Assembly (NCBI RefSeq): GCF_029227855.1
Contig: NZ_CP074356.1
Source of the DNA: Escherichia coli
Lineage (GTDB): Bacteria > Pseudomonadota > Gammaproteobacteria > Enterobacterales > Enterobacteriaceae
Reading direction: 5' to 3' (one strand)
DNA: 64,000 nucleotides
Made by a program: the position numbers and the translations under genes. Every line of letters begins with the position of its first letter. Position 1 is the stretch's first letter. The notes under the pieces were generated by a model that searched no databases, was not told where the DNA came from, and worked only from the letters and a program-made list of their open reading frames with translations. Below are positions 2,983 to 48,696 of this stretch, one piece after another.

Positions 2983-4197
2983 ATGAAGATCGTAAAGGCT
3001 GAAGTTTTTGTTACCTGTCCGGGGCGTAATTTCGTCACATTAAAAATCACTACTGAGGACGGTATTACGGGCCTTGGGGATGCCACCCTCAATGGACGTG
3101 AGCTTTCCGTGGCCTCTTATTTGCAGGATCACCTTTGTCCGCAGCTTATTGGTCGCGATGCGCACCGTATCGAAGATATCTGGCAGTTTTTCTATAAAGG
3201 TGCTTACTGGCGTCGCGGCCCGGTGACGATGTCGGCCATTTCAGCGGTTGATATGGCGCTGTGGGATATTAAAGCCAAAGCTGCCAACATGCCGCTTTAC
3301 CAGTTACTCGGCGGCGCGTCTCGTGAAGGGGTGATGGTTTATTGCCATACCACCGGTCACAGTATTGATGAAGCTCTGGATGATTATGCCCGTCATCAGG
3401 AGCTGGGATTCAAAGCCATCCGCGTGCAGTGCGGAATCCCTGGTATGAAAACCACATACGGCATGTCGAAAGGTAAAGGTCTGGCTTATGAACCCGCAAC
3501 CAAAGGACAGTGGCCGGAAGAGCAGCTGTGGTCGACGGAGAAATACCTCGATTTCATGCCGAAATTGTTTGACGCGGTACGTAACAAGTTTGGTTTTAAT
3601 GAACATTTGCTGCATGACATGCACCATCGCTTAACGCCTATTGAAGCGGCGCGCTTTGGTAAAAGCATTGAAGATTATCGCATGTTCTGGATGGAAGACC
3701 CGACGCCTGCGGAAAACCAGGAATGCTTCCGTCTCATTCGCCAACATACCGTCACACCCATCGCGGTGGGTGAAGTCTTCAACAGCATCTGGGACTGCAA
3801 GCAACTGATTGAAGAGCAACTTATCGATTATATCCGCACTACGCTGACCCACGCGGGTGGCATTACCGGTATGCGCCGGATTGCCGATTTTGCTTCGCTG
3901 TATCAGGTACGTACTGGCTCACACGGTCCTTCCGATTTGTCACCAGTCTGCATGGCTGCGGCGCTGCACTTTGATCTGTGGGTCCCCAATTTCGGTGTCC
4001 AGGAATACATGGGTTATTCCGAACAAATGCTCGAAGTCTTCCCGCACAACTGGACTTTCGATAACGGCTATATGCATCCGGGAGACAAACCGGGTCTTGG
4101 CATCGAATTCGATGAAAAGCTGGCGGCGAAATATCCCTATGAATCTGCTTATCTACCAGTCGCACGTCTGGAAGATGGCACGCTGTGGAACTGGTAA
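2983..4197 (+). CDS. rspA: starvation-sensing protein RspA (enolase superfamily, mannonate dehydratase-like)
   Basis: 404-aa ORF from ATG 2983 ([40 protein letters not shown]...), enolase-superfamily motifs. Confidence 0.95.
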
Positions 4198-4208
4198 GGA
4201 GTAAGATA

Positions 4209-5228
4209 ATGAAAAGCATTTTAATTGAAAAACCGAATCAACTGGCAATTATCGAACGCGAAATACCTACCCCGTCAGCGGGTGAAGTACGAGTAAAAGT
4301 GAAACTTGCCGGAATTTGTGGTTCAGATAGCCATATTTATCGTGGGCATAATCCTTTTGCGAAATATCCGCGCGTCATTGGACATGAATTTTTTGGCGTC
4401 ATTGATGCAGTGGGTGAAGGCGTGGAAAGCGCCAGAGTCGGTGAACGCGTTGCTGTCGATCCGGTGGTCAGCTGTGGGCATTGCTATCCGTGCTCTATAG
4501 GTAAGCCGAACGTTTGTACAACACTGGCTGTATTAGGTGTGCACGCTGACGGTGGTTTCAGTGAATATGCCGTGGTTCCGGCAAAAAATGCGTGGAAAAT
4601 TCCTGAAGCAGTGGCCGATCAATATGCGGTGATGATCGAACCTTTTACCATTGCGGCGAACGTAACCGGTCATGGTCAACCGACTGAAAATGATACCGTT
4701 CTGGTTTACGGTGCCGGTCCAATCGGCCTGACGATCGTTCAGGTATTAAAAGGCGTCTATAACGTTAAAAATGTGATTGTTGCCGATCGCATTGATGAAC
4801 GACTGGAAAAAGCGAAAGAGAGCGGGGCTGACTGGGCGATTAATAACAGCCAGACACCGCTTGGCGAGATTTTCGCTGAAAAAGGCATAAAGCCGACATT
4901 AATTATCGATGCGGCTTGTCATCCTTCTATCCTGAAAGAGGCCGTAATTCTGGCTTCTCCAGCGGCACGTATTGTATTGATGGGCTTCTCCAGTGAACCG
5001 TCTGAAGTGATTCAGCAAGGAATTACCGGAAAAGAACTCTCTATTTTCTCTTCACGCTTAAATGCAAATAAATTCCCGGTCGTTATCGACTGGTTAAGTA
5101 AAGGGTTAATTAAACCAGAAAAATTAATTACCCATACGTTTGATTTCCAGCATGTTGCTGATGCCATTAGTTTATTTGAACAGGATCAAAAACATTGCTG
5201 CAAAGTCTTACTCACTTTTTCTGAATAA
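4209..5228 (+). CDS. rspB: zinc-dependent dehydrogenase RspB
   Basis: 339-aa ORF from ATG 4209 (MKSILIEKPNQLAIIERE...), GHEFFG zinc-ADH motif and GAGPIG Rossmann motif. Confidence 0.95.
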   Translation: MKSILIEKPNQLAIIEREIPTPSAGEVRVKVKLAGICGSDSHIYRGHNPFAKYPRVIGHEFFGVIDAVGEGVESARVGERVAVDPVVSCGHCYPCSIGKPNVCTTLAVLGVHADGGFSEYAVVPAKNAWKIPEAVADQYAVMIEPFTIAANVTGHGQPTENDTVLVYGAGPIGLTIVQVLKGVYNVKNVIVADRIDERLEKAKESGADWAINNSQTPLGEIFAEKGIKPTLIIDAACHPSILKEAVILASPAARIVLMGFSSEPSEVIQQGITGKELSIFSSRLNANKFPVVIDWLSKGLIKPEKLITHTFDFQHVADAISLFEQDQKHCCKVLLTFSE

Positions 5229-19597: not shown

Positions 19598-19614
19598 TTT
19601 TGTGGAGTAAGTTG

Positions 19615-19992
19615 ATGCGTGATATTCAGATGGTTCTTGAGCGTTGGGGGGCATGGGCGGCTAATAATCATGAAGATGTGACCTGGTCGTCCATTGCCGC
19701 TGGTTTTAAGGGATTAATTCCTTCAAAAGTAAGATCTCGTCCGCAATGCTGTGACGATGACGCGATGATCATTTGTGAATGTATGGCTCGCCTGAGAAAA
19801 AACAACAGCGATTTACATGGTTTATTGGTGGACTATTATGTCGGCGGCATGACTTTTATGGCGCTTGCACGTAAGCATGGGCGATCTGATTGTTGGGTTG
19901 GCAGGATGCTCCAGAAAGCTGAGGGCGTAGTGGAGGGCATGCTGATGGTATTGGATCTCCGATTGGAGATGGATGCTGATTGTTCGAAATAA
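19615..19992 (+). CDS. late-gene antitermination protein Q
   Basis: 125-aa [27 protein letters not shown]... typical of small Q antiterminators; followed by terminator. Confidence 0.85.
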
Positions 19993-20672: not shown

Positions 20673-20864
20673 AATCAATCCTGTACTTTTGATAGTTGAG
20701 AGTAAGTATGAAAGATAGATGATTACGACCGATCACTTAAAGAACTTTCATACTATATTAGGAATAGTCCATAACAGAAAAATTGTCAGTGATGACGTCA
20801 GAAAGGCAATTTATTCCGTGCACTACACAGTTTATGTGTTAATGAATTAGTCAAGGGGGAGGAT

Positions 20865-21824
20865 ATGATAAAAAAACCTGTGATTGGAATCAGCGGTTGT
20901 TTGGCCGGTTCTGCTGTTCGTTTTGATGGTGGTCACAAAAGAGCTGACTTTTTAATGGACAAATTAGTGGAATGGGTAACATTCAGACCAGTATGTCCGG
21001 AAATGGCTATAGGGCTGCCAGTTCCGCGTCCTGCTCTACGTCTTGTGCGCTCGAAGCAAGGAAATATACGGATGTGTTTCAGCCACGACCAGAATGAGGA
21101 TGTGACAGAGAGAATGACAGAGTTTAGTCGTTCTTATATGCACAAATTAAAGGATGTATCGGGGTTTGTGGTTTGTGCTAAATCTCCCAGCTGTGGCATG
21201 GAGCGCGTGCGTGTCTATGATGAAAATGGTAATCGAGGTCGTAAAGATGGAGTGGGACTATTTACGAGCACTTTGATGGAAAAGTTTTCCTGGCTACCGG
21301 TTGAAGAGGATGGGCGATTACATGATCCAGTGCTTCGTGAGAATTTTGTTGAAAGAGTTTTTGCTTTGCATGAGCTCAATCACCTTTACAAGGAGAAATT
21401 ATCAAGAAGAGAGTTATTAGCTTTTCATAGTCGTTATAAGCTTCAGTTGTTGGCGCATAGTCAGGCAGGCTATAAAGATATGGGACCATTTGTGGCTGCA
21501 ATACACGAGTGGGCGGACCTTGAATCATACTTTGAGGTGTATCGTGATAAGCTGATGGCGATTCTCAGAAAACCTGCATCACGTAAAAATCACACGAATG
21601 TGCTGATGCATATACAGGGGTATTTTAGTAATTACTTAAGTACACGCCAGCGTAAAGAGTTGACCGAGGTTATACTTAACTATCGCTTTGGCACATTGCC
21701 TCTTCTTGCGCCGTTGACTCTGCTGAAGCATTATCTGGGTGAGTATCCTAATGATTACTTGCTTACACAGAATTACTTCGATCCCTATCCGGAAGAACTG
21801 GCTCTAAGACTGATGGTGAATTAA
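20865..21824 (+). CDS. DUF523 (TudS-like) plus DUF1722 (YbgA-like) fusion protein
   Basis: 319-aa ORF with SD agggggagg; N-terminal Cys-containing GISGCLAG...CPEM...SPSCG; C-terminal half YbgA-like. Confidence 0.75.
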   Translation: MIKKPVIGISGCLAGSAVRFDGGHKRADFLMDKLVEWVTFRPVCPEMAIGLPVPRPALRLVRSKQGNIRMCFSHDQNEDVTERMTEFSRSYMHKLKDVSGFVVCAKSPSCGMERVRVYDENGNRGRKDGVGLFTSTLMEKFSWLPVEEDGRLHDPVLRENFVERVFALHELNHLYKEKLSRRELLAFHSRYKLQLLAHSQAGYKDMGPFVAAIHEWADLESYFEVYRDKLMAILRKPASRKNHTNVLMHIQGYFSNYLSTRQRKELTEVILNYRFGTLPLLAPLTLLKHYLGEYPNDYLLTQNYFDPYPEELALRLMVN

Positions 21825-22230
21825 CTGTATGCGATATCATCTGAAAGTGATGAGTTCCTGTATGCAGGATATTTACAATCGTAAAAACTACACTATGATA
21901 CCCATAGTGTCAGTTTGTATAAAAATCCTGTTCACGCTGAAGAAAACATTGAGATGCAATTTAATGTTGGTAAACATACCAGCCCCAAAAGATTTTATTC
22001 AATCTGTTTTTATATGAAGATATTTCAAGTGAATATTAAGAGTATATAATATTATTATTGCACGCAGCTATTATAATATAACAGATTAGTTTAATGATTT
22101 GTTTTTTGTGAGTTAAACACATGGTTTTATAGTTGTGATGCAATGAGATTTTCCTTATTGTTGAACTGGCGAATATTGATTTTCCACCTATACTTACCTG
22201 GTGTAACCCCAGTGATATCAGGTGGATAAT

Positions 22231-22944
22231 ATGCCATACATATGTTCTGTCATTTTGGTGTTGAACTCGTTTGGTGTCCGAATTGGTAAAGAAGATATTT
22301 TGTTTAAAAAAGGAAGTGCTGTCCTCATCGAATACAATTTAAAAGATCTTTTTTCGTCAAATACAGATCATCTAATGATCGTAGATGTTGAGGAGAAAAC
22401 AGTTAATGATTTCTTTAAAAACTACACACTCTCACCTTTTTCTGTAAGAAGGTTTTATCCGGCATACTTGATAGTAGAATGTGAAGGTTTTTCTTTGTTA
22501 AAGAACTTGGTTGCATGCTTGAATTGTGATAGCAAAACCGTGGATGTGGTTAGAAATCAAATATCACTTGCATGTCTTGCTGTCTTATCTTCAGAGAAAA
22601 TAGTGCAAAGTTTTTTGTTCGGAAGTCTTAATAGCTTAGGTTGTAAAGTTAAGGCTATTATTCACTCGGATATCTCAGCGTCATGGAGACTTTGTGATAT
22701 ATCTTCAAGATTATATATGAGCGAGAGTTTGTTAAAAAGAAAATTAAAAGACGAAGGGGTATCGTTTAGTAGATTAATTCTTGAAGAACGAATGATGATG
22801 GCGCAAAGATTATTAATTTACAGTAACCATACTGTCGGCAAGGTGGCGGGAATATGCGGGTATGACAATGCATCATATTTTGTAAGTGTTTTTAGAAGAT
22901 ATTTTGGTGTGCCTCCGCACCAATATTTATCAAGATTTTCTTAG
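22231..22944 (+). CDS. AraC-family transcriptional regulator (AppY-like)
   Basis: C-terminal AraC HTH (GKVAGICGYDNASYFVSVFRRYFGVPPHQY); N-terminal half resembles remembered AppY; AT-rich. Confidence 0.8.
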   Translation: MPYICSVILVLNSFGVRIGKEDILFKKGSAVLIEYNLKDLFSSNTDHLMIVDVEEKTVNDFFKNYTLSPFSVRRFYPAYLIVECEGFSLLKNLVACLNCDSKTVDVVRNQISLACLAVLSSEKIVQSFLFGSLNSLGCKVKAIIHSDISASWRLCDISSRLYMSESLLKRKLKDEGVSFSRLILEERMMMAQRLLIYSNHTVGKVAGICGYDNASYFVSVFRRYFGVPPHQYLSRFS

Positions 22945-23135
22945 AAGATATGATGTGATGGCATTTTATAAAGTTGTTTTTTTGAAGTGTAAGATTATAC
23001 GATATTTTTAGCTACGCCAGAATAATTGCTGGCGTTTTTCTTTTTGAATAGATGTTCGGGCCTTACGCTAATGTAATTTTTTTCCTTCTTCGAACCAAAC
23101 CGTGTACACCATCCGTTATCTGCGGAGGTGAGGCT

Positions 23136-23351
23136 ATGAAATCCATGGATAAGTTAACAACGGGCATCGCCTACGGCACCTCTGCAGGCAGTGCTGGCTA
23201 CTGGTTTTTACAGTTGCTCGATAAAGTCACGCCCTCACAGTGGGCGGCAATAGGTGTATTGGGTAGTCTGGTATTTGGCATGCTGACGTATCTGACTAAC
23301 CTTTATTTCAAGATTAAAGAAGACAGGCGTAAGGCTGAGAGAGGAGAGTAA
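23136..23351 (+). CDS. class II holin
   Basis: 71-aa product [73 protein letters not shown] ggaggtgagg. Confidence 0.85.
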
Positions 23352-41368: not shown

Positions 41369-44300
41369 ATGGGTAAAGGCAGCAGTAAGGGGCATACCCC
41401 GCGCGAAGCGAAGGACAACCTGAAGTCCACGCAGCTGCTGAGTGTGATCGATGCCATCAGCGAAGGGCCGGTTGAAGGTCCGGTGGATGGATTAAAAAGC
41501 GTGCTGCTGAACAGTACGCCGGTGCTGGACAGTGAGGGGAATACCAATATATCCGGCGTCACGGTGGTGTTCCGGGCCGGTGAGCAGGAGCAGACTCCGC
41601 CGGAGGGATTTGAATCCTCCGGTTCCGAGACGGTGCTGGGTACGGAAGTGAAATATGACACGCCGATCACCCGCACCATCACGTCGGCAAACATCGACCG
41701 TCTGCGCTTTACCTTCGGTGTGCAGGCACTGGTGGAAACCACCTCAAAGGGGGACAGGAATCCATCGGAAGTCCGCCTGCTGGTTCAGATACAACGTAAC
41801 GGTGGCTGGGTGACGGAAAAAGACATCACCATTAAGGGTAAAACCACCTCGCAGTATCTGGCCTCAGTGGTGGTGGATAACCTGCCGCCGCGCCCGTTTA
41901 ATATCCGGATGCGCAGGATGACGCCGGACAGCACCACAGACCAGCTGCAGAACAAAACGCTCTGGTCGTCATACACCGAAATCATCGATGTGAAACAGTG
42001 CTACCCGAACACGGCACTGGTCGGCGTGCAGGTGGACTCGGAGCAGTTCGGCAGCCAGCAGGTGAGCCGTAATTATCATCTGCGAGGGCGTATTCTGCAG
42101 GTGCCGTCGAACTATAACCCGCAGACGCGGCAATACAGCGGTATCTGGGACGGGACGTTTAAACCGGCATACAGCAACAACATGGCCTGGTGTCTGTGGG
42201 ATATGCTGACCCATCCGCGCTACGGCATGGGGAAGCGTCTCGGTGCGGCGGATGTGGACAAATGGGCGCTGTATGTCATCGGCCAGAATTGCGACCAGTC
42301 GGTGCCGGATGGCTTTGGTGGCACGGAGCCGCGCATCACCTGTAATGCCTGGCTGACCACGCAGCGCAAGGCGTGGGATGTGCTCAGTGATTTCTGCTCG
42401 GCGATGCGCTGTATGCCGGTATGGAACGGGCAGACGCTGACGTTCGTGCAGGACCGGCCATCGGATAAGGTGTGGACCTATAACCGCAGTAATGTGGTGA
42501 TGCCGGATGATGGCGCGCCGTTCCGCTACAGCTTCAGCGCCCTGAAGGACCGTCATAATGCCGTTGAGGTGAACTGGATTGACCCGAATAACGGCTGGGA
42601 GACGGCGACAGAGCTTGTGGAGGACACGCAGGCCATTGCCCGTTACGGTCGTAACGTCACGAAGATGGATGCCTTTGGCTGTACCAGCCGGGGGCAGGCA
42701 CACCGCGCCGGGCTGTGGCTGATTAAAACAGAACTGCTGGAAACGCAGACCGTGGATTTCAGCGTCGGCGCAGAAGGGCTTCGCCATGTACCGGGCGATG
42801 TTATTGAAATCTGTGATGATGACTATGCCGGTATCAGCACCGGTGGTCGTGTGCTGGCGGTGAACAGCCAGACCCGGACGCTGACGCTCGACCGTGAAAT
42901 CACGCTGCCATCCTCCGGTACCACGCTGATAAGCCTGGTTGACGGAAGTGGCAATCCGGTCAGCGTGGAGGTTCAGTCCGTCACCGACGGCGTGAAGGTA
43001 AAAGTGAGCCGTGTTCCTGACGGTGTTGCTGAATACAGCGTATGGGGGCTGAAGCTGCCGACGCTGCGCCAGCGACTGTTCCGCTGCGTGAGTATCCGTG
43101 AGAACGACGACGGCACGTATGCCATCACCGCCGTGCAGCATGTGCCGGAAAAAGAGGCCATCGTGGATAACGGGGCGCACTTTGACGGCGAACAGAGTGG
43201 CACGGTGAATGGTGTCACGCCGCCAGCGGTGCAGCACCTGACCGCAGAAGTCACTGCAGACAGCGGGGAATATCAGGTGCTGGCGCGCTGGGATACGCCG
43301 AAGGTGGTGAAGGGTGTGAGCTTTATGCTTCGCCTGACCGTGGCAGCGGATGACGGCAGTGAGCGGCTGGTCAGCACGGCCCGGACGACGGAAACCACAT
43401 ACCGCTTCAGGCAGCTGGCGCTGGGAAGCTACAGGCTGACAGTCCGGGCGGCAAATGCCTGGGGGCAGCAGGGCGATCCTGCATCGGTATCGTTCCGGAT
43501 TGCCGCACCGGCAGCGCCGTCGCGGATTGAGCTGACGCCGGGCTATTTTCAGATAACCGCCACGCCCCATCTTGCCGTTTATGATCCGACGGTACAGTTT
43601 GAGTTCTGGTTCTCGGAAAAGCGGATTGCGGATATCAGGCAGGTTGAAACTACAGCCCGCTATCTTGGCACGGCGCTGTACTGGATAGCTGCCAGTATCA
43701 ATATCAAACCGGGCCATGATTATTATTTTTACATCCGCAGTGTGAACACCGTTGGCAAATCGGCATTTGTGGAGGCTGTTGGCCAGCCGAGTGATGATGC
43801 ATCCGGCTATCTGGATTTTTTCAAAGGCGAGATAGGGAAAAGCCATCTGGCTCAGGAGCTGTGGACGCAGATTGATAACGGTCAGCTTGCGCCTGACCTG
43901 GCTGAAATCAGGACGTCCATTACGGATGTCAGCAATGAAATCACGCAGACCGTCAATAAGAAACTGGAAGACCAGAGTGCGGCAATCCAGCAGATACAGA
44001 AGGTTCAGGTTGATACAAATAATAACCTGAACAGCATGTGGGCTGTGAAGCTGCAGCAGATGCAGGACGGACGCCTTTATATCGCGGGTATTGGTGCCGG
44101 TATTGAGAATACCCCTGACGGTATGCAGAGTCAGGTGCTGCTGGCGGCGGACAGGATTGCGATGATTAATCCTGCGAATGGCAACACAAAACCGATGTTT
44201 GTTGGTCAGGGCGATCAGATATTCATGAACGAAGTGTTCCTGAAATATCTGACGGCTCCCACCATTACCAGCGGCGGTAATCCTCCGGCATTTTCCCTGA

Positions 44301-44848
44301 CACCGGACGGGCGGCTGACGGCGAAAAATGCCGATATTAGCGGTAACGTGAATGCGAACTCCGGGACGCTCAACAACGTCACGATTAACGAGAACTGCCG
44401 GGTTCTGGGAAAACTGTCCGCGAACCAGATTGAAGGCGATCTCGTTAAAACAGTGGGCAAAGCTTTCCCCCGGGACTCCCGTGCACCGGAACGGTGGCCA
44501 TCAGGGACCATTACCGTCAGGGTTTATGACGATCAGCCGTTTGACCGGCAGATTGTTATTCCGGCGGTGGCATTCAGCGGCGCTAAACATGAGAGAGAGC
44601 ATACTGATATTTACTCCTCATGCCGTCTGATAGTGCGGAAAAACGGTGCTGAAATTTATAACCGTACCGCGCTGGATAATACGCTGATTTACAGTGGCGT
44701 TATTGATATGCCTGCCGGTCACGGTCACATGACGCTGGAGTTTTCGGTGTCAGCATGGCTGGTAAATGACTGGTATCCCACAGCAAGTATCAGCGATCTG
44801 CTGGTTGTGGTGATGAAGAAAGCCACCGCAGGCATCAGTATCAGCTGA
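41369..44848 (+). CDS. host specificity protein J (central tail fibre)
   Basis: 1159-aa ORF in lambda J position. Confidence 0.9.
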
Positions 44849-44867
44849 ATTTTATAACCCATATACG

Positions 44868-44891
44868 GGCGCCAGAAATGGCGCCTTTTTT
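44868..44891 (+). terminator. rho-independent terminator after J
   Basis: Hairpin ggcgccagaaatggcgcc followed by TTTTTT. Confidence 0.6.
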
Positions 44892-44915
44892 ATTGCAGAA
44901 AAGCGAGAGGTAATT

Positions 44916-45515
44916 ATGCGTAAAGTTTGTGCCGCCATTTTTTCCGCAGCCATTTGTCTGGCCGTATCCGGTGCGCCTGCATGGGCATCTGAACATCAGT
45001 CCACGCTGAGCGCGGGGTATCTTCATGCCTCGACGAACGTTCCCGGCAGCGATGATCTGAACGGGATTAACGTGAAATACCGTTATGAGTTTACGGACAC
45101 ACTGGGGATGGTGACGTCATTCAGCTATGCAGGAGACAAGAATCGCCAGCTTACCCGTTACAGCGATACCCGCTGGCATGAAGATTCCGTGCGTAACCGC
45201 TGGTTCAGCGTGATGGTGGGGCCGTCTGTGCGCGTGAATGAATGGTTCAGCGCGTATGCGATGGCGGGTATGGCTTACAGCCGTGTTTCGACTTTCTCCG
45301 GAGATTATATCCGCGTAACTGACAACAAGGGGAAAACGCACGATGTGCTGACCGGAAGTGATGACGGTCGCCACAGCGACACGTCTCTGGCATGGGGGGC
45401 TGGCGTGCAGTTTAACCCGACCGAATCCGTGGCCATTGATATTGCTTATGAAGGTTCCGGCAGTGGCGACTGGCGCACTGACGGTTTCATCGTTGGTGTC
45501 GGTTATAAATTCTGA
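44916..45515 (+). CDS. lom: Lom/Ail family outer-membrane beta-barrel protein
   Basis: 199-aa ORF with signal peptide, ends GVGYKF (aromatic C-terminal residue typical of OM barrels), SD gagagg. Confidence 0.9.
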
Positions 45516-45541
45516 TTAGCCAGGTAACACAGTGTTATGAC

Positions 45542-45568
45542 AGCCCGCCGGTTCAGGCGGGCTTTTTT
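45542..45568 (+). terminator. rho-independent terminator after lom
   Basis: Hairpin agcccgcc...ggcgggct followed by TTTTTT. Confidence 0.6.
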
Positions 45569-46250
45569 GTGCACAGAAAACCCCCAGCTAGGCTGGGGGT
45601 TCCGGAAAGCTTTCAGCTTTGAGCCAGTTATTAAAACCCCTTTTGATTTGTTAAAACACTTTGCGGTCTGGCAACTGCAAGTGTCAAACAAGAAATCAAA
45701 AGGGGGTCCCAATGGGGAACGAAAAGAGCTTAGCGCACACCCGATGGAACTGTAAATATCACATAGTTTTTGCGCCAAAATACCGAAGACAGGTGTTCTA
45801 CAGAGAGAAGCGTAGAGCAATAGGCAGTATTTTGAGAAAGCTGTGTGAGTGGAAAAGCGTACGGATTCTGGAAGCTGAATGCTGTGCAGATCATATCCAT
45901 ATGCTTGTGGAGATCCCGCCCAAAATGAGCGTATCCGGGTTTATGGGATATCTGAAAGGGAAAAGCAGTCTGATGCTTTACGAGCAGTTTGGTGATTTGA
46001 AATTCAAATACAGGAACAGGGAGTTCTGGTGCAGAGGGTACTACGTCGATACAGTGGGTAAGAACACGGCGAAGATACAGGATTACATAAAGCACCAGCT
46101 TGAAGAGGATAAAATGGGAGAGCAGTTATCGATTCCCTATCCGGGCAGCCCGTTTACGGGCCGTAAGTAACGAAGTTGGATGCAAATGTCAGATCGTGTG
46201 CGCCTGTTAGGGCGCGGCTGGTAAGAGAGCCTTATAGGCGCATTTGAAAA
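45569..46250 (+). mobile_element. IS200-type insertion sequence (IS200/IS605 family)
   Basis: Y1 (HUH) transposase gene flanked by short noncoding ends; perfect palindrome cccccagctaggctggggg at 45581-45599 near the left end; boundaries approximate. Confidence 0.7.
45712..46170 (+). CDS. tnpA: IS200-type transposase TnpA
   Basis: 152-aa product MGNEKSLAHTRWNCKYHIVFAPKYRRQVFY... with HUH-like HMLVEIPP and catalytic Tyr region. Confidence 0.85.
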   Translation: MGNEKSLAHTRWNCKYHIVFAPKYRRQVFYREKRRAIGSILRKLCEWKSVRILEAECCADHIHMLVEIPPKMSVSGFMGYLKGKSSLMLYEQFGDLKFKYRNREFWCRGYYVDTVGKNTAKIQDYIKHQLEEDKMGEQLSIPYPGSPFTGRK

Positions 46251-46290
46251 ACCTCCGGCTATGCCGGAGGATATTTATTGTGGAGTGGAT

Positions 46291-48696
46291 ATGGCAGCAG
46301 TAAAAATCTCAGGTGTGCTGAAAGATGGTGCGGGAAAACCAATACAGAACTGCACTATTCAACTGAAGGCAAAGCGTAACAGCACCACGGTACTGGTGAA
46401 CACGGTGGCTTCTGAAAATCCGGATGAAGCCGGACGTTACAGCATGGATGTTGAGTATGGCCAGTACAGCGTCACCCTGCTGGTTGAAGGTTTTCCGCCT
46501 TCACATGCCGGGACCATTACCGTCTATGAAGGCTCCAGACCAGGTACGCTGAATGATTTTCTCGGTGCCATGACGGAAGATGATGTCATGCCGGAGGCAT
46601 TGCGTCGTTTTGAGGCAATGGTGGAAGAAGTGGCACGCAACGCCGAAGCCGCCTCTCAGAGCGCAGCGGCGGCAAAGAAATCCGAAACTGCAGCGGCATC
46701 ATCAAAGAACGCGGCGAAAACCTCAGAAACGAATGCAGCTAATAGTGCACAGGCGGCAGCGACCTCAAAGACTGCATCGGCAAACTCCGCGACAGCAGCC
46801 AAAAAATCAGAAACCAACGCGAAAAATAGCGAGACAGCCGCAAAGACGAGCGAAACCAACGCAAAGTCCAGCCAGACGGCAGCGAAAACCAGCGAAACGA
46901 ATGCCAAAGCCAGTGAAACTGCGGCAAAAAACAGCCAGGTTGCAGCAGCCCAAAGCGAGAGCGCGGCAGCCGGTTCTGCGACTTCAGCAGCTGGATCAGC
47001 AACTGCTGCGGCTAACAGCCAGAAAGCTGCGAAGACGAGTGAAACTAACGCAAAGTCCAGCCAGACGGCAGCGAAGACCAGCGAAACGAATGCCAAAGCC
47101 AGTGAAACTGCGGCGAAAAGCAGTCAGGATGCAGCGGCCCAAAGCGAGAGTGCCGCAGCCAGTTCTGCAAGCGCGGCGGCTGCTTCTGCCACTGCATCAG
47201 CCAACAGTCAAAAAGCAGCAAAAACCAGTGAAACCAACGCAAAGGCGAGCGAGACTGCGGCGGCGAACTCGGCGCAAGCATCGGCAGCAAGCCAGACAGC
47301 AGCTAAAGCAAGTGAAGACGCAGCCAGAGAGTATGCAAGCCAGGCAGCGGAGCCGTATAAATATGTCTTACAGCCACTGCCTGATGTGTGGATACCGTTT
47401 AACGATTCACTGGATATGATTACGGGCTTTTCGCCATCATATAAAAAAATTGTTATTGGCGACGATGAAATAACAATGCCTGGCGACAAGATTGTAAAGT
47501 TTAAACGCGCATCGAAAGCAACTTACATTAATAAATCTGGTGTGCTGACAGAGGCTGCCATTGACGAGCCACGATTTGAACGTGATGGCCTGCTTATTGA
47601 GGGGCAAAGAACTAACCTGCTAATCAATTCAACAAATCCGACTAAATGGAACAAGTCGTCAAATATGATCTTAAGTGCATCAGGTGTAGATGATTTCGGA
47701 TTCCAGTACGCAAAATTTACATTAAAACCAGAAATGGTAGGGCAAATTTCAGCGATTAACATAGTAACCGTTTCCGGCAGTAAAGGTTTTGATGTAACAG
47801 GCGGAGAAAAGTATGTAACCATATCATGCAGGGTGCAAAGTGGCACTCCAAATTTAAGATGCCGATTACGATTTGAAAACTATGATGGTTCTACCTACAC
47901 ATTCTTAGGTGACGCTTACTTAAATACGACAGATTTATCTATTGATAAGACGGGTGGTGCCGCTAATCGCATTACTGCAAGGGCTGTTAAAGATGAAGCA
48001 AGCAAATGGATCTTTTTTGAGGCGACAATTAAGGCACTTGATACAGAAAATATGATAGGTGGAATGGTTCAGTATGCCCCGGCAAAAGGAGTGGGCACTG
48101 GCGCGGATGATTATATTTATATTGCGACCCCTCAAGTTGAAGGTGGGGCGTGCGCTTCATCGTTTATTATAACAGGCGCATCCCCTGTAACACGCGCCAG
48201 CGATATTGTAACGGTCCCCATTTCTCTAAATTGGTGCAATCCCGCTATTAGTTCATTAGCAGAAGTTAATACCAATTGGGATGAATCGCCAAACAAAGAA
48301 GGTAGCGCACGTATTCTTAATATTTCCACTACGGGAGATACAACTGAAATTGCAGATGAAAGTTATATGTATTTGGGGTATACATCTTTGGGAGCACGCG
48401 CAATCATTACAAATGGTAAAGGCACTAAAATAGAATATAAAAGCGTTATAGAACGACCAGAGAGAAAAAGCATTATCGGCTTTAGATTCACAGAAAGTCG
48501 AGAATTGTGTGTTGTGGTTAACGGTAATATTGGTGCTAAGGTGGTTTCTCCTTATAAAAAACACAAATATACAGGAGGCTTCATTAATATTGGTGGTCAA
48601 TCATCATCCGGCAACCGTCACCTATTTGGACACGTTCGAAATCTGCGTATTTGGCACAAGGCATTGACTGATGCTCAGATGGGGGAGTCAATCTAA
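46291..48696 (+). CDS. stf: side tail fibre protein (Stf-like) with repeat-rich shaft and distinct C-terminal receptor-binding region
   Basis: N-terminus MAAVKISGVLKDGAGKPIQNCTIQLKAKRNSTT... matches conserved Stf N-terminal domain; Ala/Lys/Thr/Ser/Glu-rich repeats; AT-richer C-terminal third. Confidence 0.85.
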   Translation: MAAVKISGVLKDGAGKPIQNCTIQLKAKRNSTTVLVNTVASENPDEAGRYSMDVEYGQYSVTLLVEGFPPSHAGTITVYEGSRPGTLNDFLGAMTEDDVMPEALRRFEAMVEEVARNAEAASQSAAAAKKSETAAASSKNAAKTSETNAANSAQAAATSKTASANSATAAKKSETNAKNSETAAKTSETNAKSSQTAAKTSETNAKASETAAKNSQVAAAQSESAAAGSATSAAGSATAAANSQKAAKTSETNAKSSQTAAKTSETNAKASETAAKSSQDAAAQSESAAASSASAAAASATASANSQKAAKTSETNAKASETAAANSAQASAASQTAAKASEDAAREYASQAAEPYKYVLQPLPDVWIPFNDSLDMITGFSPSYKKIVIGDDEITMPGDKIVKFKRASKATYINKSGVLTEAAIDEPRFERDGLLIEGQRTNLLINSTNPTKWNKSSNMILSASGVDDFGFQYAKFTLKPEMVGQISAINIVTVSGSKGFDVTGGEKYVTISCRVQSGTPNLRCRLRFENYDGSTYTFLGDAYLNTTDLSIDKTGGAANRITARAVKDEASKWIFFEATIKALDTENMIGGMVQYAPAKGVGTGADDYIYIATPQVEGGACASSFIITGASPVTRASDIVTVPISLNWCNPAISSLAEVNTNWDESPNKEGSARILNISTTGDTTEIADESYMYLGYTSLGARAIITNGKGTKIEYKSVIERPERKSIIGFRFTESRELCVVVNGNIGAKVVSPYKKHKYTGGFINIGGQSSSGNRHLFGHVRNLRIWHKALTDAQMGESI
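46650..47300 (+). repeat. tandem and near-identical direct repeats inside stf (about 110-bp copies at 46861-46975 and 47050-47164, 189-bp period)
   Basis: Repeated blocks gcaaagtccagccagacggcagcgaa(a/g)accagcgaaacgaatgccaaagccagtgaaactgcggc...; many spurious ORFs on both strands. Confidence 0.75.

Follow-up and report, generated by a model that had tools for sequence, protein, structure and literature searches.

A transposase gene separates lom from the side tail fibre gene stf in an Escherichia coli prophage. The locus raises the question of whether this gene belongs to a mobile element with definable ends, what kind of target that element occupies, and whether it alters the expression of stf. 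The stretch of DNA that was analyzed, referred to here as the window, comprises 64,000 nucleotides of contig NZ_CP074356.1 (assembly GCF_029227855.1), and positions are window positions unless a locus of another genome is named. The prophage lies at the Qin/ydfJ site and has an HK97-like head module; apart from the late genes considered below, it also carries an integrase, lysis genes, a terminase and a full tail module. Two cargo-like genes, encoding a 2-thiouracil desulfurase/DUF1722 protein and an AraC-family regulator, are located at 20865-22944, between Q and the lysis genes. The features relevant to the locus are as follows.

19600 to 19992, + strand: intact gene of the same prophage for a Q-type late antiterminator (PF06530, E = 3.4e-50)
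41369 to 44848: J
44867 to 44894, + strand: terminator-like hairpin (44867 to 44886; 8-pair stem, 6 GC pairs) plus T-run with the tail TTTTTATT, 3' of J and upstream of lom
44916 to 45515, + strand: lom, encoding an Ail/Lom outer-membrane beta-barrel protein of 199 amino acids (PF06316, E = 6.6e-120; same annotation in CFT073 and CFSAN061763)
45542 to 45569, + strand: intrinsic terminator of lom, AGCCCGCC-ggttca-GGCGGGCT plus TTTTTT (hairpin 45542 to 45563; GC-rich 8-pair stem, -18.2 kcal/mol, z = -3.3)
45568 to 46278, + strand: IS200C, 711 bp, limits ±1 nt (from the empty-site comparison, the lambda tR2 event and the identity with IS200C of CFT073)
45579 to 45601, + strand: perfect left-end hairpin AACCCCCAGC-tag-GCTGGGGGTT (-18.7 kcal/mol; nt 12 to 34 of the element if nt 1 = 45568)
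45579 to 45702, + strand: match to Rfam RF01405, STnc490, the IS200 tnpA 5' leader/art200 region (144.6 bits, gathering score 56, E = 5.4e-31, full length 1 to 124)
45637 to 45705, + strand: long stem-loop of the tnpA 5' untranslated region (element nt 70 to 138; -37.2 kcal/mol, z = -5.5, a stability reached by 0 of 200 shuffles)
45712 to 46170, + strand: tnpA, encoding a Y1/HUH transposase of 152 amino acids (PF01797, Y1_Tnp, "Transposase IS200 like", E = 3.8e-38 over residues 11 to 129)
46199 to 46242, + strand: internal imperfect hairpin 3' of tnpA (-24.5 kcal/mol, z = -3.0)
46247 to 46279, + strand: true right end, hairpin CCTCCGGC-tat-GCCGGAGG plus ATATTTATT (hairpin 46247 to 46275, core 46252 to 46270; -17.2 kcal/mol, z = -4.2)
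46282 to 46293, + strand: ribosome binding site GGAG (46282 to 46285) and start codon ATG (46291) of stf, unchanged relative to the empty allele, with the start as annotated in CFT073 and CFSAN061763
46291 to 48696, + strand: stf, intact side tail fibre gene, 801 amino acids (PF08400, E = 5.5e-67)

The terminators that flank lom on both sides (44867-44894 and 45542-45569) give it the arrangement classically seen in morons that are expressed independently within a late operon.

Identity and limits of the element

The segment at approximately 45568-46278 is a complete copy of IS200C (IS200/IS605 family, IS200 group), oriented in the same direction as lom, stf and the late operon. A preliminary description of this DNA had placed an IS200-type element with a Y1 transposase between lom and stf, immediately behind the lom terminator. 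The assignment is confirmed by the PF01797 and STnc490 matches and the end hairpins, and the position by the terminator at 45542-45569 together with the PF06316 and PF08400 matches on either side. A single open reading frame, tnpA, fills the 711-bp element, with no tnpB. Its product contains the HUH motif in the form HIH (residues 61-63) and the conserved tyrosine at residue 125, within RGYYV, and aligns to the solved Y1 transposases of IS608 (2A6M) and ISDra2 (2XM3) and also to 2EC2. In addition, a CFT073 locus labelled "IS200/IS605-like element IS200C family transposase" in RefSeq matches the element and 30-40 nt of its flanks with 100% identity. The copy in the window is probably still functional.

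A search for terminal inverted repeats joining the two termini of the element found none. The left-end hairpin at 45579-45601 is presumably the structure bound by TnpA. At the opposite end, the hairpin at 46247-46275 is not present in the empty allele, and this end scores as terminator-like on both strands. The element had initially been described with flanking hairpins and with the boundaries 45569-46250. Its start was correct, falling within the range 45567-45569 obtained below, but its end was set approximately 28 bp short. Both flanking hairpins do exist, yet the right one extends beyond that end and was left out; the internal hairpin at 46199-46242 is probably what was taken for the right end.

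The leader of tnpA follows the published IS200 arrangement. In IS200, the left-end hairpin covers nt 12-34 and the leader stem-loop nt 69-138, and this stem-loop of the tnpA 5' untranslated region hides the Shine-Dalgarno sequence of tnpA (PMC4513863). With nt 1 set at 45568, the corresponding structures of the window fall at nt 12-34 and 70-138. The STnc490 model matches the + strand, which is the sense strand of tnpA, unlike the published art200/STnc490 RNA, which is antisense to the tnpA leader (PMC4513863). The region 45579-45702 is rich in palindromes, and the 5'tnpA RNA of the sense strand maps there too. Two other Rfam matches were rejected as chance hits: Trp_leader at 45488-45570, which reaches 27 bits (gathering score 41) and corresponds to the lom terminator, and ST7-AS1_2, which lies below threshold.

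The limits of the element were derived from two empty sites. The same prophage without the insertion, a comparison that the preliminary description had proposed, was found in CFSAN061763. To the left of the element, the two prophages share 99.96% identity over 19.4 kb, and to its right they share 99.1% over 17.7 kb; by comparison, the insert measures exactly 711 bp. The empty junction in CFSAN061763 is GGGCTTTTTTGTGGAGTGGATATG, whereas the window has GGGCTTTTTTG-TGCACAG...GGATATTTATTG-TGGAGTGGATATG. Taken alone, this pair leaves a 5-nt ambiguity (TTGTG) in the position of the insert. A second, independent event is provided by the phage genomes Lambda_ev058 and PhiR63_2, which carry the same element between ren and ninB. 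The reconstructed empty junction of this insertion is 100% identical to lambda J02459 40549-40668, where the hairpin plus T-run is the tR2 terminator. When the ends of the element are required to be common to both events, its start falls at 45567-45569 and its end at 46277-46279. The junction microhomologies, TTGTG in the window versus TTTATT at lambda tR2, differ in length and sequence, and both can be explained by the likeness of the T-rich right end to the T-rich target; 0-2 nt are left with common IS ends. Across the two events with empty sites, there is no target-site duplication of fixed length.

Both the window prophage and that of CFSAN061763 occupy the Qin/ydfJ site, and they match from 26187 on only, the early/Q/lysis region (1-26186) being a different mosaic module. 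The right junction also affects the annotation of stf. A mechanically generated list of open reading frames starts the gene at 46261, an in-frame ATG inside the loop of the right-end hairpin, which adds 10 residues (MPEDIYCGVD). This start is an artefact made by the insertion, and the real start is 46291, as in the empty allele and in RefSeq. For annotation, the locus can thus be described with IS limits to ±1 nt and with the stf start corrected to 46291.

The empty sites also bear on an alternative in which the transposase gene is part of the fixed phage backbone, as a moron or domesticated gene, and is not mobile. The gene does lie beside lom, a position typical of morons, and has hairpins on both sides. 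Moreover, the occupied left junction (lom-IS) recurs in 150 of 5,426 complete E. coli genomes, and the prophages carrying it are of at least two kinds (those of the window and of CFT073). However, the uninterrupted junction, found in many genomes with a chimeric lom-stf query, is present in 4,254 of the 5,426, the near-identical prophage of CFSAN061763 lacks precisely the 711 bp, the same 711 bp recur at many unrelated sites and in lambda tR2, and all IS200 end structures are present. The counter-case named in the preliminary description, a transposase gene of the phage backbone without IS ends, therefore does not apply at this locus. Since the precise empty sites have already refuted the backbone interpretation, it retains virtually no probability.

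IS200C-like sequence was detected in 3,097 of the 5,426 complete E. coli genomes, at a median of 2 and up to 35 places per matching genome. Some genomes, such as that of strain EFF60, have both an occupied and an uninterrupted lom-stf junction, in different prophages. The element shows 0 differences between the window and CFT073, but the divergence of lom reaches ~10% in 100-bp bins; multiple insertions into a hot spot and dissemination by recombination would fit this pattern equally. With its distribution over 150/5,426 genomes, the insertion offers a clean presence/absence marker. In Lambda_ev058 (locus positions 3480-4215) and PhiR63_2, IS200C lies inside the tR2 T-run, co-oriented with pR and upstream of Q, which indicates that the element can travel on lambdoid phages.

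Terminators as insertion targets

The lom terminator is unchanged in the empty allele, and IS200C sits in its T-run. To survey the flanks of related elements, the 26-nt segment of the left-end hairpin (A-run fixed) was searched for in species-representative genomes, and the sequence preceding each copy was inspected. A flank was considered terminator-like if it contained a perfect stem of at least 5 pairs, including at least 3 GC pairs, with a loop of 3-8 and 4 or more T among the 6 positions that follow. Among the unique IS200/IS1541 flanks, 86/117 were terminator-like, compared to 0.9% of 20,000 positions drawn at random from these loci. Imperfect hairpins are visible in most of the remaining 31 flanks, and a T-run adjoins the left end in 117/117. 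The scanned copies are mostly IS1541 of Yersinia pestis, with relatives in Vibrio, Brenneria, Pluralibacter, Edwardsiella and MAGs of several other phyla. Nearly all copies stand immediately 3' of a hairpin and its T-run. Two copies beyond the flank set lie head to tail with another copy, whose right end seems to have served as their target. Moreover, other E. coli IS200C copies have the TTTTTTG flank, and even part of the hairpin arm, in common with the window copy, and the right end of the element resembles the lom terminator it occupies. Based on the flank counts, the tandems, the terminator-like right end and the TTTTTTG flanks, landing in the lom terminator is the rule for IS200C and no peculiarity of this prophage.

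Odaert et al. are said to have proposed terminator-like stem-loops as hot spots of IS1541 in 1998 (J Bacteriol 180:178). Our literature search for an explicit statement of terminator targeting by IS200/IS1541 turned up just a 2025-26 preprint, in which terminator enrichment is also reported for the whole family, as family-level statistics.

The survey yielded some further observations on individual copies. The head-to-tail tandems are formed by IS1541 in Yersinia pestis NCTC5923, one left end directly following the right-end hairpin of another copy plus TATTTATTG. The identical 26-nt left-end segment occurs in MAGs assigned to Oxalobacter, Bacillota, Mailhella/Desulfovibrio, Peptococcaceae, Saccharibacteria and Elusimicrobiaceae. 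These copies are usually located 15-230 nt from a contig end, again after a hairpin plus T-run, and a true host and binning contamination are both conceivable. The 7 nt between junction and hairpin vary by lineage in the MAG copies (TCAAACG, TGAAACG, TTAAAAG, TATGAAG).

A mechanism for this target choice can be proposed from the family model, in which TnpA would act on single-stranded DNA, by peel-and-paste transposition, and would recognize and bind hairpins near both ends. At this locus, IS200C entered the T-run of the lom terminator in the orientation in which lom is transcribed, and a target of this kind, with its hairpin and T-run, would imitate the right end of the element itself. In an IS608-like scheme, a guide beside the hairpin would pair with the T-rich cleavage or target sequence. 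An A-rich segment stands immediately 5' of each IS hairpin (AGAAAA on the left, GAAAAA on the right), and at the left junction the target GGGCTTTTTTG and CAGAAAACCCC of the element make up a 16-nt palindrome of 88% complementarity. Both features fit such a guide scheme, and we infer that targeting operates through terminator mimicry.

A wider version of this model would have the IS200 group pick terminators as single-stranded mimics of its right end (hairpin plus TATTTATT), with the left A-run as an IS608-type guide. Prophage copies in terminators such as that of lom or tR2 would then be read through only by N- or Q-antiterminated polymerase, and induction would supply tnpA transcripts and single-stranded DNA together. 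As a whole, this extension is speculative and probably goes too far. If it is true, lambdoid phages would be both the trigger and the vehicle for an otherwise dormant element.

Expected consequences for stf transcription

The element ends about 12 nt upstream of the stf start codon. Behind it, a hairpin, a T-rich tail and GTGGAGTGGATATG (with GGAG) restore a context almost equivalent to the original, and the stf product differs by 1 amino acid between the window and the empty-site strain. The preliminary description had suggested that the insertion may affect stf transcription, given that the left-end hairpin of IS200 blocks read-through. The latter is documented: the hairpin is a bidirectional rho-independent terminator that shields the element from impinging transcription (PMC4513863). 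For the effect on stf itself, the context points the other way, as two terminators precede the insertion, the prophage encodes Q, the same element is found in tR2, and both the open reading frame and the Shine-Dalgarno sequence of stf are intact.

In its strong form, a polar insertion would mean that the left-end terminator and the terminator-like right end cut stf-tfa transcription substantially, yielding virions with fewer or no side tail fibres. Apart from the published activity of the left-end hairpin, this would agree with the right-end hairpin and T-rich tail, which are terminator-like on both strands, and with the discovery of IS200 as a polar insertion in hisD (PMC4513863). It would also agree with our search of a phage collection for the element at lom-stf, in which no record carries it. 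On the other hand, two intrinsic terminators (44867-44886 and 45542-45563) already lie between J and stf in the empty allele. Behind these, stf expression must depend on terminator-resistant late transcription, with or without the element. The left-end hairpin has no T-run on the + strand, and the terminator scan did not call it on that strand.

A natural parallel is found in the lambdoid phages. In Lambda_ev058 and PhiR63_2, the same element lies in the same orientation between the replication genes and ninB...Q, and transcription from pR must therefore cross it to reach the nin genes and Q. Both appear to be viable phages, considering that their sequences were submitted as phage genomes and that one record names a host. 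The tR2 copies are thus a natural hint that antiterminated transcription tolerates IS200C.

The state of the stf gene adds to this picture. It is intact in the window, and the stf open reading frame behind the same element in CFT073 is also uninterrupted, with 799 amino acids; in addition, the occupied junction is kept in the 150 genomes. Yet stf is dispensable in lambda. An intact reading frame in a recent insertion consequently says little about expression, and the phage would remain functional even if the insertion were polar.

With the insertion, lom and stf would be separated additionally by the terminator hairpin of the left end and by the terminator-like right end. The stf gene is presumably read by Q-modified, terminator-resistant RNA polymerase. 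Because of this polymerase and the two prior terminators, the extra polarity is expected to be small. A strong block of stf transcription by IS200C is unlikely, and so, on the evidence above, is a substantial loss of side tail fibres. A partial polar effect is possible in principle but probably minor.

The opposite effect was considered as well, namely, that the insertion activates or re-wires stf through an outward promoter at the right end, or that small RNAs of the element (art200, 5'tnpA) act on phage or host genes. The window copy has the full STnc490 region, and RNAs derived from the IS200 leader regulate host genes in Salmonella (PMC5435999, PMC12594629). However, no sigma-70-like promoter was found in 44800-46500, where such sequences are fewer than in shuffles, which makes activation of stf by the element unlikely. 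The tnpA promoter is intrinsically weak (PMC4513863), and the strain background probably contains many other IS200C copies, to which one more adds little RNA. An activating role is therefore very improbable.

Taken together, the locus is best explained by a complete IS200C in the lom terminator, a target of the usual kind, with a small effect on stf. We assign this reading as a whole a probability of about 0.88. The identity and limits of the element, its target and the intactness of its neighbours are demonstrated, and the last part, the small effect, is the one that we infer from context.

Relation to known IS200/IS605 elements

IS200C, its silencing structures and its preference for terminator sites are already known, and the copy in the window can be compared directly with several characterized relatives. 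The closest is IS200C of CFT073 (WP_000526135.1-type tnpA), which is 711 bp long with 0 differences, lies at the equivalent lom-stf junction, and has the same 152-amino-acid TnpA and end hairpins. The prophages themselves differ, that of CFT073 being located near ssrA and having a lambda-like head module. The possibility that they are one and the same prophage was rejected, as the flanks are just 96% identical by BLAST, although the element plus 30-40 nt is 100% identical.

RefSeq splits the stf gene of CFT073 (NC_004431.1, locus positions 20752-23151) into a "partial" pseudogene, two further coding sequences and a hypothetical protein on the opposite strand. Since the open reading frame from the same ATG runs through without interruption, the split is apparently an artefact of annotation in the region of Ala/Ser-rich repeats. 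In the window, the Ala/Ser/Thr-rich part of stf contains a direct repeat of ~249 bp with ~83% identity (46825-47073 versus 47014-47262, from BLAST self-matches), and long spurious open reading frames occur in several frames and on both strands of this repeat region (46825-47262).

With IS200 of Salmonella (PMC4513863), the window copy has in common the left-end terminator hairpin at nt 12-34, the art200/STnc490 region and the presence of tnpA alone; the lengths differ, at 707 bp for the Salmonella element versus 711 bp for IS200C. A related variant in a Salmonella houtenae record matches the window copy at 91.5%. IS1541 of Yersinia is identical to the window copy over the 26-nt left-end hairpin segment, has the same right end, and shows the same siting behind a hairpin plus T-run. 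The first bases after the junction are TGCCCAG in IS1541 and TGCACAG in the window, and the copy number of IS1541 in Y. pestis is much higher.

More distant relatives are IS608 of H. pylori and ISDra2 of D. radiodurans, which, like the window element, have a homologous Y1/HUH TnpA and subterminal hairpins but no terminal inverted repeats. ISDra2 also inserts in an oriented fashion 3' of a short target, as does the element in the window. In contrast to the IS200 group, which has tnpA only, IS608 and ISDra2 also carry tnpB. The targets differ as well: IS608 and ISDra2 use a plain tetra- or pentanucleotide (TTAC and TTGAT, respectively), whereas the IS200 group uses a hairpin plus a T-rich run, the arrangement that the lom terminator provides.
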